A stretch of DNA of 64,000 bases from Podarcis cretensis. Its lineage: Eukaryota. A program made the translations under genes and the position numbers. The DNA lies in assembly GCA_951804945.1 (NCBI GenBank), contig OX638151.1, positions 46,314,001-46,378,000 on the forward strand, read 5' to 3'. Each line of letters starts with the position of its first letter. Within the stretch, counting starts at the first letter, position 1. Below the pieces are notes generated by a model. It had not been told where the DNA came from and did not search any database. It worked only from the letters and a program-made list of their open reading frames with translations. Positions 9,590 to 61,769 of this stretch are shown here, piece after piece.

Positions 9590-10648
9590 TTTCTAGACTG
9601 CTTTACTCCTTCTGCTCTCAAATACCTTTGTCATATGACATGGGGATGGTGGAACATCTATGATCTAAGCCTGGGAGAAGATGCTAAATGGGGAAGCTTG
9701 TTCCTCTTCTTCATTTGAGTCTTCCATGGGGCAGCATATGGGTCTAGGGTTGGTGGTCAGTACATTGGCTGACATATCCAAATATGTCTATGTGCACAAA
9801 ATCCAATGTGCACAGCCCAAAATAGGGTGCAGTGGATACCCTAGTGGAAGAAAAATGAATCTGATAAGTGCCTACAAGCATTGGATTCTACACATGTAGA
9901 ACATCCAGCACTAACAGAGCACAATGAATGGAATATTTTTGCCTTTACGCAGTAAGTGTTTGCAACCGAGTCTTACTTCTCCTTGAACGACCCTAACTTT
10001 TGAAAATTTGAGAAACTTATAATTACCATGGGGGATTTTTTGATAAAATTACTTTGGATCTTAAAACATCTTAAAGCTACTTTTAAAAACCTGACAGCAA
10101 GAGAATAAGAAGGGAAATGTAATTAGCTGTGCCATATAGAAATTATCTCCATATCCTGGAAATAGTTATTTTTCTATAAAGCTCCTGAAAAATTGTCAAA
10201 TATATTTTATAAAATGTAACATAAAATACGTGGATTATATTAAAGGGTGGATCCAACTACATGCACATTTAACTTTGGTAAAATAAAGTGCATTTTATTT
10301 CTCAGAAACAGCAGCAGCCTAGTGTGCATGCTCGTTTGACTTATATTGCTGGTAAGCAAACTACCACACTCGACCTCTTATGTTTTAAGGCAGGGGTGTA
10401 GAGCCTCAGGCCAGGGGCCAAATTGAGCTTTATAGGCCTCTCTATAGCTGTTGGGCCTCTCTGCAGGGAATACCACAAGAGTGGCTAGAGGAGCCACACC
10501 CTTTCTTCCCAGACCCCACCTCTCACTGGTCCTGCTCCATTCCCTTCTTGAGTGCTTTTGCCTACGTGGAGGTGTCCCTGACATGGGAAAAGGCCTGAAT
10601 GTAAAGATGTGGGTGCAGGAACCTTTATATGGCTGAAATGCAGCCTAC

Positions 10649-11152
10649 TGTCATGAATATGCCAGCTCCGAGTGTAATTTTACAGCCGGCTGGAGAATGC
10701 AGTCAGGAACAGAGAGACTTGGCTTATACTCTGGCAAAGGAGAGCCCACAGCTGCCAGCGTCGACTCCCCCTGTTCTTGGATGGCCGGCTGCTAAGGGAG
10801 TAACTGAGAGCAGGCTAGAACAGAGCCAAAGCTCTCCAGAAGCCCAAACAGGCGCGAAAAGCCACAGAGACAGCCTTTTTCAACAGGAAGGGGATGTAGT
10901 TGACCCAATAAGCCCGAGGCGTAGGCAAATAGGACGGCTGCTAGACAGGAAGCAAAATAAAAGACGTAAGGGTCGAAAGTTCAATATCTTCTGTCATCAC
11001 AGGAAGGAGTCTTCAGAAGGGTCAATTTGAGAGATTATGCCGGCGGCTTGGCTAGAGCCATCCAGAGTTAATTGTTTGTTTTTGCAATAAATCCCCCTTT
11101 TTAATTACGTACGCTTACTGTGTTATCAAGCCGCGAACCTGGACTCCTGACA
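10649..11152 (+). mobile_element. Solo LTR (504 bp) with an internal ORF, nested in a hAT non-autonomous element
   Basis: TGTCA...TGACA termini, 5-bp TSD CCTAC/CCTAT, AATAAA at about 11085, open frame 10650-11030. Confidence 0.8.
10650..11030 (+). CDS. LTR-embedded ORF (126 aa), Ser/Glu/Pro-rich then Arg/Lys-rich
   Basis: VMNMPAPS...DPISPRRRQIGRLLDRKQNKRRKGRKFNIFCHHRKESSEGSI*. Same register relative to the LTR start as the other two LTR ORFs. Confidence 0.4.
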   Translation, partial: VMNMPAPSVILQPAGECSQEQRDLAYTLAKESPQLPASTPPVLGWPAAKGVTESRLEQSQSSPEAQTGAKSHRDSLFQQEGDVVDPISPRRRQIGRLLDRKQNKRRKGRKFNIFCHHRKESSEGSI

Positions 11153-11429
11153 CCTATACTACAAAGGTAATAGTGTCATAGTAATAGTGCCACCCTCCAT
11201 TTTTGCCTCTGACCCCACCATCATTGACATGACACCCCTGAAAGTTGCTCACAAGACAATGTTGCCACAGAGATGGAAAGGTTCCCCCACCTATGTTTTA
11301 AAGGCTACCTTCCACAGCATTCTCAGGCTCATCCACACTTCCACTTGCCCCCCCCCCTGCAAAACCCTGCTCTTTACCGCTGAATTGGAGCAAACATCAA
11401 TGTGGTTTCCCATGGACTGATCCAATTCA

Positions 11430-21483: not shown

Positions 21484-22390
21484 AAAACCACTGGCTGCAC
21501 AGGTGGTGTCATCAGGAATGATTTGGCTTCTTGGATCATGATCTCTGCTTCCTTGAGGTAGGACTTCTGCGAGAGATGGGCTGCACCTCACAGCATTTGG
21601 CAAGAATGTGTTTGTCAAGAGTCTTGAGAATCTTTAAACTAGATCTTGAGTGGGAGGGATAAAACAATATGAATGACAAAAGAGCAGCTGGCACTGGGGA
21701 TAATAGCGTCACTGATGCACTGAAAACTGAGGTGGTGCTCCAGAAACCTGCTAAAGGGCAAAAACTACAGGGAGGAAGGAAGCAGTTGCAGGGAACAACT
21801 CGTAGTTTCAGTTGTCTCTACACAAATGCACAGAGTATGGGAAACAAACAAGATGAACTGGAGCTTTTAACATAGGATGGCAAATACGACCTGGCAGGCA
21901 TTACTGAAATCTGGTGGGATGAGACTCATGACTGGAGTGAAGGAATTGAGAGGCACAACCTGTTCAAAAGGAATAGACCAAACAGAAAGGGAGGAGTAGC
22001 ATTGTATATAAAGGATGTGTACACTTGTGAAGAAATCCATGGCCTGGAGCATGAAAAGCAGATTGAAAGTATATGGGTAAAAACTGTAGGAGAGAGAAAG
22101 AATAGTGACCTTACTGTGGGTGTCTGCTACAGACTGCCAAGACAGACTGAAGACTTGGATAATGCCTTACTAGAGCAGATTAGCAAACATTCAAAAAGGA
22201 GAGAAATAGTAATCATGTGGGACTTCAACTTCCCCAAGAGTGCAAGGTCTGAAAAATTCCTCCATTGCATCGCTGACAATTTAAACAGAGGTTGGATGGC
22301 CATCTGCCATGGATGCTTTAGCTGAGATTCCGGCATTAAAGGGGTTGGACTAGATGACCCTTGAGGTCCCTTCCAACTCGATTCTATGAT
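21484..22390 (+). mobile_element. Internally deleted CR1 LINE (ORF1 esterase end, endonuclease N-terminus, then 3' end)
   Basis: FGFLDH and RDGLHLT (CR1 ORF1); CLYTNAQSMGNKQDELE, ESIWVK, GVCYR and DFNFP (APE endonuclease); jumps at about 22280 to the CR1 3' UTR ending TTCCAACTCGATTCTATGAT. Confidence 0.88.
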
Positions 22391-32459: not shown

Positions 32460-33299
32460 TGTTAGGGGACTGCCATCGGAACAGGGGAGGGAGGCAAAGG
32501 GAATGCAGAGAGCCTCCGAGGCTTCTGAGGAGCAGCTCCTTGTCCGGCAGTGGGGAAAGCCACACCTCCAGTGGAATAGAGAGGGAAGGGGCCAGGCAAG
32601 TGAGGAGAGGGCTCAAAGATGCTGCGGAGAGCCCAAGCACCTCACATAGCCCAGCTGGCCAGGAGGCAAACATGCAACTTCCGTTGCCCAGCTTGTGCAA
32701 AGGGGTTAAACGCAAGGAGGGGAGGCAGAGATTTGGGGTGTCTAAGTTCTTATGTTGGAGGAGAAGCCAGAAGGCGCCACTCCAAGTGACTAAGACGGAC
32801 ATGAACTTTGTGTTTCTGCACTGTAAATAGGTAAAGGTAAAGGTACCCCTGCCCGTACGGGCCAGTCTTGACAGACTCTGGGGTTGTGCGCCCATCTCAC
32901 TTAAGAGGCCAGGGGCCAGCGCTGTCCGGAGACACTTCCGGGTCACGTGGCCAGCGTGACATCGCTGCTCTGGCCAGAGCCAGAGCCAGAGCCAGAGCCG
33001 CACACGGAAACGCCGTTTACCTTCCCGCTGGTAAGCGGTCCCTATTTATCTACTTGCACCCGGAGGTGCTTTTGAACTGCTAGGTTGGCAGGCACTGGGA
33101 CCGAGCAGCGGGAGCGCACCCCGCCGCAGGGATTCGAACCGCCGACCTTTCGATCGGCAAGCCCTAGGCGCTGAGGCTTTAACCCACAGTGCCACCTGCG
33201 TCCCCCTGCACTGTAAATAGTTTGCACCAATAAAACCTGTAAAAGACAGGTCAGAGTCCTGCCTGGTTACTCACGAGCAACCACCACAAACATCTGACA
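32460..33299 (+). mobile_element. Solo LTR (about 450 bp excluding the SINE), interrupted by a Sauria SINE
   Basis: TGTTAG...CTGACA termini, TSD GGACC/GCACC (alternative start at 32426 with GCACTC/GCACCC), AATAAA at about 33229. Both ends resemble the LTR at 45999 (ACTGCCATCGGA; CACGAGCAACC). Confidence 0.75.
32831..33205 (-). mobile_element. Sauria SINE inserted in a solo LTR
   Basis: Near-identical to the 14010 copy; 15-bp TSD CTGCACTGTAAATAG. Confidence 0.92.
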
Positions 33300-45998: not shown

Positions 45999-46434
45999 TG
46001 TCAGGGAACTGCCATCGGAGCCAGAGGCGGAGGGAAGGCTCCAGAACGATGCCGGAGAGGGTCCCAGCAGGGAGAGAGGCAGCCCATCTGCTGGGGAAGG
46101 AAATCAGCGTAACACCAGAGGAGAAGGGGGGCAGATGGGGGAATCGGAGAAAAGGCTCCAGGACTCTTCACCGGAGACCACTGGGGAGAGCACGGGTACT
46201 CCGCTGCCCGCACCCTCCCTGCGCAGAAGACTTCCGCACAGGGAGAGTAGGAGGAGACTTGGCGTCAAAGAACTTCTTTGCTGGAAGAAGTTTAAGAAAT
46301 GCCCACTGACGGATTCTGCCAGCGACTGAGACAGCCACGAGTGCAAGGCTGTCCAGAGAGAAAGGGCTCAACCAGGCAACCTAGCCAGGAGTGGCGGCAA
46401 CTTACGCACGAGCAACCCCCTTAGAACCATTACA
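45999..46434 (+). mobile_element. Solo LTR (436 bp) with an internal ORF
   Basis: TGTCA...TTACA termini, perfect 5-bp TSD ACGAC (45994-45998 and 46435-46439), frame open 46000-46329. Confidence 0.85.
46000..46329 (+). CDS. LTR-embedded ORF (109 aa, open from the LTR edge), small acidic-then-basic protein
   Basis: VRELPSEPEAEG...LPAPSLRRRLPHRESRRRLGVKELLCWKKFKKCPLTDSASD*. Protein-level similarity to the frame at 32678-32782. Confidence 0.5.
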   Translation, partial: VRELPSEPEAEGRLQNDAGEGPSRERGSPSAGEGNQRNTRGEGGQMGESEKRLQDSSPETTGESTGTPLPAPSLRRRLPHRESRRRLGVKELLCWKKFKKCPLTDSASD

Positions 46435-52322: not shown

Positions 52323-53153
52323 AAACAAAAAAATTCCTTCCAGTAGCACCTTAAAGACCAACTAAGTCAGTTCTTGGTATGAGCTTTCGTGTGCATGCAC
52401 ACTTCTTCAGATACACTGAAACAGAAGTTTCCAGACCCTTCTATATAGTGAGAAGGTGGGGAGGGGTATTACTCAGAAGGGTGGTGGGAATGGGTGATTG
52501 GCAGATAGCTGTGATGAGCCTGTTGACGACTCTTAACGACTGCAATAGGTCTTACAGGAAAAAGCAAGGGGTGAAAAGGTGAAAAATGGCTTTGTCATGT
52601 ATAATGAGATAAGAATCCAAGGTCTTTGTTCAGACCAGGTCTCTCCATGGTTTTAAGTTTGGTGATAAGTTGCAATTCAGCAGCTTCTCTTTCCAGTCTA
52701 TTTCTGAAATTCCTTTGTAGTAAAACAGCTACTTTGAGATCTTGTATAGAATGTCCTGGGAGATTGAAGTGTTCTCCTACTTGTTTCTCTGTCTTGTGAT
52801 TCCTGATGTCCGATTTATGTCCGTTTATTCTTTGGCGTAAGGTCTGGCATGTTTGTCCAATATAGAGAGCTGAAGGACACTGTTGGCATTTGATGGCATA
52901 CACAATGTTAGACGATGAGCAATTAAATAGTCCCGAGATGGTATGTGTGATGTTGTTGGGGCCAGTAATGGTGTTGTCTGGGTGTATGTGGCATTATATT
53001 AGAATAATAGTATTATAATAATACTACAACCAGACCTAACACGGGCACTGGCACCAGAGCCTGCAATAAACCCAGATGCCAACTTTGCTGCCACATACAC
53101 CCGGACAACACCATTACTGGCCCCAACAACATCACACATACCATCTCGGGACT
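52323..53153 (-). mobile_element. Penelope-like retroelement fragment (GIY-YIG endonuclease end plus 3' pseudo-LTR) with an inverted 5' piece
   Basis: VYAIKCQQCPSALYIGQT...LRQRINGH...EHFNLPGHS...GLN. The Cys-rich linker CNKPRCQLC suggests the Neptune clade. Confidence 0.9.
52377..52414 (-). ncRNA. Minimal type I hammerhead ribozyme motif in the Penelope element
   Basis: Minus strand: GUAU-CUGAAGA-A-GUGUGCAUGCACAC-GAAA-GC-UC-AUAC, i.e. stem I, CUGANGA core, palindromic stem II, GAAA, very short stem III, UH cleavage site. Confidence 0.8.
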
Positions 53154-55668: not shown

Positions 55669-55893
55669 TGTATGTATTACTTGGCTGGGGAAACCAATCA
55701 CAAAATTCAGAGATGTGTCAATTTCAAAGTATGGCATTGTTTCAGTTCTCACATTCTTTGGAAATTGAGAACCTACCTACCTGTATGTATTACTTGGCTG
55801 GGGAAACCAATCACAAAATTCAGAGATGTGTCAATTTCAAAGTATGGCATTGTTTCAGTTCTCACATTCTTTGGAAATTGAGAACCTACCTAC
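55669..55893. repeat. Perfect tandem duplication, 2 x 112 bp (period 113)
   Basis: 55669-55780 is identical to 55782-55893. Confidence 0.92.
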
Positions 55894-59623: not shown

Positions 59624-60688
59624 CTAGAGATTGCACATAGAGAGAGATGAAGGAAACTGCTCAGGTAAGACACCTTTGTTTGCACAAATGTGCCACGCAG
59701 GTTAACTAATCCCCGAAACGCATCCACGCCAAGTGGACTTGAATGGGAGTTTGGAACATAAGATTTAGAGAATCATAGACTTCCACTGCAGATTAAGTTG
59801 CCCCTTGCCACCATTCCAGCTGCTTGTCAGTCATAACTGGAAGGACTGGGAAGGGGGATCATAGCATCAGAGGTATGGCTGAATCCAACCACCATCCACA
59901 CAAGGTTTTTCCAATGCTTATGAAAGAAGTGGAGGATTCTAATCAGTATTAGCAATAGCAAGTCTACAACTCAGAAGTGATGGTTTTTCTAGACTATTTT
60001 ACACAGGGGTGCATTAGTCGTGCAGAGAGCTGGAAACATGCATGGACACTGAGGGCAAACACATAAGGAAATGAAATGTTGCTTCTGCCAAAATATGAAG
60101 AGCACATATTGGATCTGCTTTGCTTTCGAAGCCAATGAGCTGTTGGGTAGGAAAGGCAACCTAGACAGATACGCTTGAACTCCAGCAGTGTCTCTGGAAC
60201 AAAGCCCTGAGATTGCTCCAACTAGAAGAAGTGGCTCTTCAAGATCTCAGCCAGAAGCCTGACGCCGGCCTAAAGAAGACAACTTTCAGCAACACCCCCT
60301 CCCCGCTCCGCAAAAAAGAGCACACCCAAGAAGCCGACGCATTGTCCACACAAACCACTGCTTTCCCCGAGCTCCCTTCCCTGAGGAAATTGCAGTCCCT
60401 CCACATTTAAAACCTATTGGGCTACGTCGAGCACACGCACAGGAGATGCCTCTCGACGGACTTCTGACTCTGTCCGAGGGCTCAAGAGAAAAGGCGAAGA
60501 ATCCATGTGGCCGGGGTGGGGTGGGGTGGGGTGGGGTGGGGGTGAAGCGGGGAAGGGGCTTATTATGGGGCGGAGGGGGGGGGAGAGAGAAACGTCCAAA
60601 GAAGGCAGCTCTAGCCGCGTCCGCCTCACGCGAGGACCCTCTTTTCCGACAGGGCATGGAAAGGGCGACTCCCTCTCGCGCCTCCGTG

Positions 60689-60718
60689 GCCGCCGCCGCC
60701 GCCGCCGCCGCCGCCGCC
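60689..60718. repeat. (GCC)10 repeat in the CpG island
   Basis: Direct reading. Confidence 0.9.
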
Positions 60719-60848
60719 TCTGGCACGGTCGCTCTCGCTCGCCCCGAGTGACTCTTGCCAGAAACTTTGGCAGCCGAAGACGAGCGCGAGAAGGCGGGCG
60801 CGGCGAGCGCCCCGCGGCTCCCCGAGAAAGACTGAGGGAAACTCTTAC

Positions 60849-61250
60849 CTGGCTGACGCGGGACGCGCCGCGCGCTGGCTGGCTGACTCGCTCGCTGGCA
60901 GGTGAAGCGACGCTCCCCACAGAAGCGGCGGAGTCCAGGCAGGCACTATATCCCCCTTCGGCCAGGCGGCGCCAACAACGAGGCGCTCCTTCTCGGCTTG
61001 CACCTGTGCGCCAGGCGAGGCAAATGCTCCCTGGCGCCTTCTCCGTCTCCCTGTTCCTCTTTCTCCCGAGCGGCGGCGAGCTAGAAACCCCGCCGCTCCT
61101 CCTTCCTTCCTTCCTCCTCCTCCTCTCGCCTTCCCCCCAGACTCTCTCCCCGTCACGTCTCCACACAGCCCCGGCAGCCGTAGGGCGACTCCCGCCTTCG
61201 CGCTCTGCCTAGTGCCGGAATGTCCGAGCCGCCGCCGGAGCAGCATCCAC
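60849..61250 (-). other. Putative non-coding first exon (5' UTR); start site approximate
   Basis: Minus strand reads ...CGTCAGCCAG|GTAAGAGT at 60849, a strong donor. No ATG seen from the donor up to about 61210. Lies downstream of the CCAAT and GC boxes. Confidence 0.6.
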
Positions 61251-61769
61251 CTAGCGCTCCCCCGCCCCCTCCACTCGCACGCCAAGAGCAGGCAGCTCCC
61301 GAGCGCGCCACTCATTGGTCCTCCCGCCGCTGACCTCACCGCAGCCGCTCACGCCCACCTAGTGGATTTCCTAGGCAGCCTTTATTATAGGGGCGCCCGC
61401 CTACCAGCCCGGGCAGCGGGGCTCTCGGCACCAAGCTAGGCGCGCTCTTGCGCCGCTCGGGTCCATCCATTGATTGCACCACAAGTGAAGTAGCCTCTTG
61501 GCCTCCTGGCCAGTGTCCTGTTTTGGGGCGGGGCCCGGATGAGATGCACGGCGGTGGAAATCTATTAAAAGAGATTAAAGGGAGACAGCTGGAAGCTAAT
61601 CACCATCGCAAACAGTTGGGAGCAAGGAGGGAGGGGAGACAATTACAGCAGACACTGTAGGCTGGAAGGAGGTGACTGAAGAGGCTTGCGAGATGAGCTA
61701 GACAAAGTCACATTTCTCATAGACCTGCTAGCTTTGTCGCCAGTCACTTCTTTGGTGGTCAAACATATG

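Follow-up and report, generated by a model that had tools for sequence, protein, structure and literature searches.

The open frame in one solo LTR of Podarcis cretensis (hereafter LTR A) is very probably the last 126 codons of the Pol of a Tf1/sushi-type chromovirus, read past the chromodomain into the U3 of the 3' LTR. LTR A lies in a 64,000-nt stretch of DNA, referred to here as the window, which was analysed at its full length (GenBank assembly GCA_951804945.1, contig OX638151.1, positions 46,314,001 to 46,378,000, forward strand). In full-length relatives, a single frame encodes protease, RT, RNase H, integrase, SH3, chromodomain and an acidic linker, and then passes through the polypurine tract into the LTR. 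Reverse transcription puts U3 in both LTRs of such an element, and recombination between the LTRs leaves a solo LTR; as a result of these two processes, an orphan frame is present in every copy. Transcription of the frame would be confined to the 3' LTR of full-length elements, the promoter of a solo LTR being unable to supply it, and the tail would form a disordered extension of integrase that ends in a short basic-hydrophobic motif. The copy in the window is most likely an inert relic. A first-pass annotation of this DNA had proposed an old LTR gene shared by distant families; a conserved, shared coding feature beyond chance is indeed present, but it appears to be the C-terminal end of Pol and not a separate gene. 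If so, what looked like a new gene family disappears: the frames seen open in such LTRs are ends of Pol, wrongly described both by gene finders that annotate them and by Pol models that finish with the chromodomain.

LTR A begins with TGTCA and ends with TGACA. Its frame runs from base 2 (10650) to a TGA at 11028-11030 and covers 382 of 504 nt (76%), in agreement with the earlier description of a frame that opens at base 2 and takes up about three quarters of the LTR. The peptide carries PISPRRR at 10905 and NIFCHH at 10983, 14 of its last 41 residues are K or R, and ATGs are present at codons 2 and 4 (Table 1). Only 7 of 10,000 dinucleotide shuffles of LTR A reached 126 codons from base 2 (101 in any forward frame, 313 in any of the six frames); the shuffled null that the first-pass annotation had suggested thus places this frame beyond chance. 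For a second solo LTR in the window (LTR B), a chance frame was not rejected when that LTR was taken alone, since its frame was reached by 440 of 10,000 shuffles in register 2, i.e., reading from LTR base 2, and by 4,643 in any frame.

Table 1. Positions of the three solo LTRs and their features in the window.
Feature	Position	Strand	Basis or remark
Solo LTR A, family A, Tf1/sushi-type chromovirus (Gypsy)	10649..11152	+	Family search; Sushi-like end motifs
Left target-site duplication CCTAC	10644..10648	+	4/5 match to right one
Right target-site duplication CCTAT	11153..11157	+	4/5 match to left one
Register-2 open frame, 126 codons; probable copy of LTR-encoded C-terminal Pol/integrase tail	10650..11030	+	Read-through in relatives
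ATG inside tail, absent from most family copies	10653..10655	+	17/54 copies
Basic C-terminal motif, then F-N-I-F-C, then Ser/acidic end	10905..11030	+	
Predicted self-primer, putative start of R and RNA 5' end	11015..11024	+	10-nt complement
Predicted polyadenylation signal AATAAA	11086..11091	+	
Solo LTR C, B-related, frameshifted	32460..33299	+	SINE inserted at ~32828-33206
Solo LTR B, young family B, perfect duplication ACGAC	45999..46434	+	Same Pol tail, another lineage
LTR B register-2 frame, 109 codons	46000-46329	+	

LTR A showed no blastn similarity to the other two window LTRs (E<=1, word size 7), as had been noted before. The same register and architecture had also been claimed for all three LTRs, which does not hold for the third (LTR C): its register 2 is open for only 62 codons, a frameshift separates the register-2 start from the end motif, and the basic-Cys motif stands in register 3. 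Likewise, the P-x-S-P-R-R-R said to be shared is present in LTR A, but the corresponding stretch of LTR B reads PAPSLRRR. No longer homologue of the LTR A peptide was found among 303 candidates, and an ESM Atlas search with it gave no usable match. When the three peptides were compared with Pfam, no family scored above the cut-off, and the sole match below it was XRCC4_C (E 0.0095).

Evidence that such frames belong to Pol comes from full-length relatives in the same genome. Intact Pol frames of 1333 aa (L162, L163) and 1556 aa (L159, L160) extend 304 and 658 nt, respectively, into the 3' LTR, where the first codon stands at base 2. In these frames a codon ends on the T of the terminal TG, so that the first complete codon within the LTR begins at base 2, and this accounts for the register shared by these LTRs. 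Pfam families follow in the order PR-RT-RH-IN-SH3-Chromo in L162, where the chromodomain ends ~190 residues before the stop, and in all four of these elements, as well as in L166, the frame is not closed upstream by a stop but is open into Pol. The junction was recovered in 20 of 21 B-type loci, and in 19 of the 20 a G/P/E-rich linker ending in E-V-D reads straight into V-R-E-L; nine junctions are open for at least 230 codons upstream and through the full tail. Complete B-type tails have 95-109 codons, and all of them (16 loci) are kept open. By comparison, in 11 of 11 two-LTR Copia/ERV control elements the last long frame stops 46-676 nt before the 3' LTR. An ERV or Copia origin of the window LTRs was rejected, as the 20 integrase loci from a PF00665 search had no match to them and the internal regions linked to these LTRs are chromovirus gag and pol, not ERV/Copia genes. 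Intact young elements of ERV-like (gag-pol-env) and Copia type are also numerous in the genome (L109-L128), their LTR pairs being 96-100% identical.

Protein databases contain similar ends. Three UniRef gene models of Podarcis muralis Pol end with the same tail, and the nearest named proteins are Tf2/Gypsy-like models from lizards, frog and fish. Among the best 150 matches to a query running from the L162 chromodomain to the stop, only one (P0005) spans the whole tail, the others covering mainly the chromodomain. Inspection of 33 matches showed an L-L-C-W-K-R-R ending behind a similar linker in P0054 and an extension that is acidic and then basic in the Vipera latastei model P0053. The fish models from Labeo rohita (P0074) and Hemibagrus guttatus (P0122) run past G-G-x-x-V-T and stop ~10-25 residues further on; these ends, as read from the protein models, would fit a short read-through.

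No intact family A element was found in the genome searches, and the link between family A and Pol rests on decayed relatives. On C16, a family A 5' LTR is present at two duplicate places (87-90% identical to copy L231), followed downstream by a self-priming-type site and then by a sushi-type gag (27%, E 1e-11). The 5' LTR and gag fragment lie in inverted duplicates (L239, L240, L280 and L281; G000:C16:6.68-6.72 Mb), with two more partial copies nearby. Six old relatives on the A side (L308-L313) carry integrase, SH3, chromodomain, acidic linker, purine tract and LTR in that order. The LTR of L309 begins TGTCATGAAT, as the window copy does, matches 54 of 54 family A copies, and is 79% identical to LTR A over nt 296-501 (39% over the whole peptide); it is the closest Pol-linked LTR, but belongs to a related subfamily and not to family A. 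In L310 and L311 the linker is in phase with LTR register 2, as it is in L312 for the final linker codons; in L308, L309 and L313, three of the six old copies and all of them decayed, the two are out of phase within a G-run. In L353 (the same element as L310), Pol residues 137-1148 align in one frame, interrupted by 12 stops, that continues as LTR register 2. L166 stays open all the way from its chromodomain to the end of a 102-codon tail, and L335, also read in phase, ends in L-S-P-R-S-R-R, a basic tract and W-G-F-S-C.

In a DNA tree of the SH3-chromodomain region (25 rows, all from this genome, with L340 included under an A-linked label), L308-L313 grouped together at 98/99, separate from the B-type elements. 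L340 itself was rejected as an A-linked element, as its A-like LTR is nested in the LTR of another element. A first pattern search, for the purine tract plus LTR, yielded no family A element with internal sequence except L032/L048, and a second pattern gave 12 matches with pol upstream only in L316 (the same element as L309). Twenty family A copies chosen for long open frames had neither pol nor gag beside them on the same strand as the LTR, and nested repeats dominated the searches made with internal DNA.

A genome search with LTR A gave 604 candidates, of which 40 were scored and found to be 77-88% identical. Family A copies have 5-bp target duplications, perfect in 14 of 30, and solo LTRs of families A and B are spread over many contigs. 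The LTR ends (TGTCATG..CCTGACA) fit the Sushi motifs TGTYANR..CNTNACA, as given in Table 3 of PMC3601003. Stops over LTR positions 1-378, counted in 29 further copies from the DNA search, number 0.81 per 100 codons in register 2, compared with 6.11 in register 1 and 4.31 in register 3. The frame is open for at least 120 codons in 12 of 54 family A copies, a set drawn in part from a protein search, which favours open frames; among copies from the DNA search, the count is 7 of 30, the window copy included. Private indels within the frame were not multiples of three in 17 of 29 cases, as decay after insertion predicts. 

Selection on the tail was measured in lineages that still carry Pol. In 16 Pol-linked B-type LTRs, omega was 0.20 over the last 45 codons, the stretch that corresponds to the basic C-terminal motif of LTR A (codon models; 2dL 104 vs omega 1), with dS ~1.1, and elsewhere it was 0.48 in the first part of the tail, 0.31 in the linker and 0.11 in SH3 plus chromodomain (9 loci). 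Among solo copies, omega was 0.71 and 0.73 for 12 open family A solos (2dL 3.0 and 5.5) and 0.67 for 27 young B solos; the window copy compared with 11 others gave dN/dS of 0.55-0.61, against a neutral reference of 0.49-0.57. The low B-type values and the near-neutral solos indicate that active lineages preserve the end motif at the protein level and that solo copies drift. This demonstrates selection in the B-type lineages and not in family A; promoter elements also occupy these bases. In this genome, thousands of solo LTRs retain a legible trace of an extension of integrase on which selection acts at the protein level.

These values bear on the alternative that Pol merely lost its stop, that the purine-rich U3 stays open and that the resulting peptide is idle, its conservation being due to overlapping promoter and priming signals. 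The weak constraint on the first part of the B-type tail would suit such an account, as would the lack of a significant profile match between A and B tails, the frequency with which purine-rich B sequence is open by chance, and a tail length that varies from ~20 residues (fish, estimated from peptides) to 218. However, synonymous change is free in the last 45 codons while residues are kept, unlike what DNA-level signals would produce; moreover, the complete B-type tails are open without exception, and the same ending, basic and then hydrophobic, is seen again on each side of the tree. We therefore consider an idle peptide improbable, though it is the most serious of the alternatives, and favor a Pol tail retained for its protein sequence.

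Where the RNA begins was approached through self-priming. The primer of Tf1 is formed by the first 11 bases of its own RNA (PMC7175516), and self-priming is a mark of the Tf1/sushi group (PMC6317226; bioRxiv 10.1101/2022.12.06.519325). In 6 of 10 two-LTR elements, the beginning of the internal region is exactly complementary over 11 nt to a site that lies 19-22 nt ahead of the tail stop; one of the remaining elements had a 9-nt complement, and three had none there. On the A side, L356 has an 11-nt complement near the frame end. For family A, positions 11015-11024 form a 10-nt complement to the site behind the 5' LTR that precedes gag, a match partly built in, as the search pattern itself had supplied 7 of the letters. 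That pattern gave 57 matches vs 37 in the control, most of them from another repeat, and the sites of L240 and L239 against their own LTRs gave complements of only 7 and 6 nt (null range 6-9). From these complements we infer that the RNA begins at the self-primer, 13-22 nt before the tail stop. Nearly the whole frame would then be U3, and only the RNA of a full-length element would include it, at the 3' end.

This arrangement is relevant to the proposal of an accessory gene in U3 that stands alone, with its own ATG, and is expressed from a separate or spliced RNA. HIV nef and MMTV sag are such coding sequences, overlapping U3 and giving separate proteins with their own start. The lizard frame resembles them in overlapping U3 and in being visible in every LTR copy, but differs in that it is part of Pol in an element without env. 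The first-pass annotation had pointed to an ATG at 10653, which is present in the window copy along with that at codon 4. Four of the 54 family A copies combine an ATG with a frame open for at least 120 codons, and an LTR of another family, nested in a family A LTR (L035; G000:C3:101830106 onward), also has Met at codon 2, in a register-2 frame of 117 codons with a basic end; its tail had no profile match to those of LTRs A, B or C. However, only 17 of 54 family A copies have the ATG, 37 lack it (32 of the 54 begin TGTCAGG), and it is missing from 30 of 30 B solos. The ATG at 10653 also lies ~360 nt upstream of the predicted RNA start, and in relatives the frame is continuous with Pol upstream. 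A gene of this kind is thus very unlikely. Least credible is co-option of the window solo LTR by the host as a small protein gene: the copy is one of the few from the DNA search still open for at least 120 codons and its insertion is also present in a second organism (organism B), but its dN/dS is near the neutral reference, the omega of open solos is similar to that of young B solos, and a 5-nt insertion after 10657, found in both contigs of organism B that cover the 5' junction, takes the first ATG out of register, although the second would remain in frame.

What the Pol tail might do was considered with a structure model from 10 natural sequences. The chromodomain was predicted to be folded (pLDDT 84-92), and the linker and tail to be coil of low confidence, in which a single weak helix is placed on the hydrophobic-Cys-Trp motif (residues 230-238). 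Integrase C-terminal tethers exist in other elements. On balance, we lean slightly toward the tail as a flexible arm whose short linear motif would be a signal for nuclear import of the integration complex, for its tethering to chromatin, or for both.

The first-pass annotation had suggested homology of the A and B peptides from their architecture. This did not find support at the profile level: hhalign paired exactly the region flagged earlier, but with a probability of 0.2%, and 13 of 40 column shuffles scored as high. Adding 13 C-termini from the A side raised the value to 2.3% over 3 columns. By the same method, the B and C peptides are homologous (96.7%), and B against the tails of the 1556-aa family gave 25%. 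The equivalence of the A and B tails is one of position, in Pols that are related; common descent of their end motif is likely.

The closest architecture is that of the Reina-clade elements Bingo1-4 and Bingo7 of sugar beet, in which the chromodomain lies upstream of the polypurine tract and the frame continues into the 3' LTR (PMC3605345); they differ in belonging to a plant clade. In plant CRM group A, the CR motif (CHDCR) is encoded in the 3' LTR (PMC3059260, PMC3605345 and PMC6317226). As in the lizard elements, the Pol/integrase frame crosses the polypurine tract and enters the 3' LTR, where the integrase C-terminus is encoded, and a targeting role is proposed for the CRM tail, as we do for the lizard tail. 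Unlike CRM group A, where the CR motif replaces the chromodomain, L162 keeps its chromodomain and adds the tail after an acidic linker, and unlike the tRNA-Met priming of CRM, the lizard elements are predicted to be self-priming. The likeness to the CR motif is one of architecture, the tail peptides having been compared with Pfam families only. With the Tf1/sushi group (V-clade, sushi-ichi, Amn-ichi), the lizard elements share LTR ends, a chromodomain integrase, a CCHC gag overlapping pol, an 11-nt self-priming site and a 5-bp target duplication (PMC6317226, PMC7175516, PMC3601003; bioRxiv 10.1101/2022.12.06.519325); they differ from the descriptions found in the available portions of these sources in a Pol tail of 95-218 LTR-encoded residues. 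An LTR-encoded integrase extension is therefore known from plant CRM/Reina chromoviruses, and in the literature searched (mostly non-subscription papers) we found no description of Pol reading into the 3' LTR in vertebrates or squamates.

The 1556-aa Pol family is young and has the longest tail seen, 218 LTR-encoded residues, and LTR pairs that are 99.9-100% identical in L159 and L160. Its Pol has no chromodomain match in Pfam; the chromodomain is degenerate. Copies of this family are concentrated near contig ends: of the 123 copies listed, 51 are no more than 100 kb away from one, compared with 0.2% expected (contigs of known length, with 7 rows left out; 150 of 3,407 candidates were scored, and family was assigned by score). 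In all 8 stretches sampled (L357-L364; 7 contig ends on C1, C3, C4, C6, C7 and C8 and one internal cluster at C3:121.88 Mb), outer junctions lay in (TTAGGG)n, 26 of 26 in the same 5-bp phase and in both orientations. Telomeric flanks were found for 0 of 60 A and B solos. As points against strict targeting, dispersed copies of the 1556-aa family have ordinary flanks in 19 of 20 cases, their target 5-mers resemble the telomeric one, and amplification within telomeric arrays may be an alternative. The broader idea that Tf1/sushi chromoviruses of lizards evolved a second, LTR-encoded targeting module of integrase, a vertebrate parallel to the plant CR motif, has its strongest hint in this family, but is speculative and on present indications doubtful. 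If it were true, the 218-aa tail would steer an LTR retrotransposon into vertebrate telomeres, and if the tail sets insertion preference, the telomere-inserting relative would be a natural contrast for the choice of sites by chromoviruses.

Elsewhere in the window, comparison of 106 frames with Pfam gave a sole match, to an endonuclease family at 21876-22322, and no host gene was identified. Positions 60200-61450 have ~60% G+C and long overlapping frames, three of them without a Pfam match; this segment is likely a CpG-island promoter. Other repeats in the window are two near-perfect inverted pairs, of 40 nt and 65 nt, and a tandem duplication of 112 nt that is exact (1829-1917, 52929-53153 and 55669-55893).
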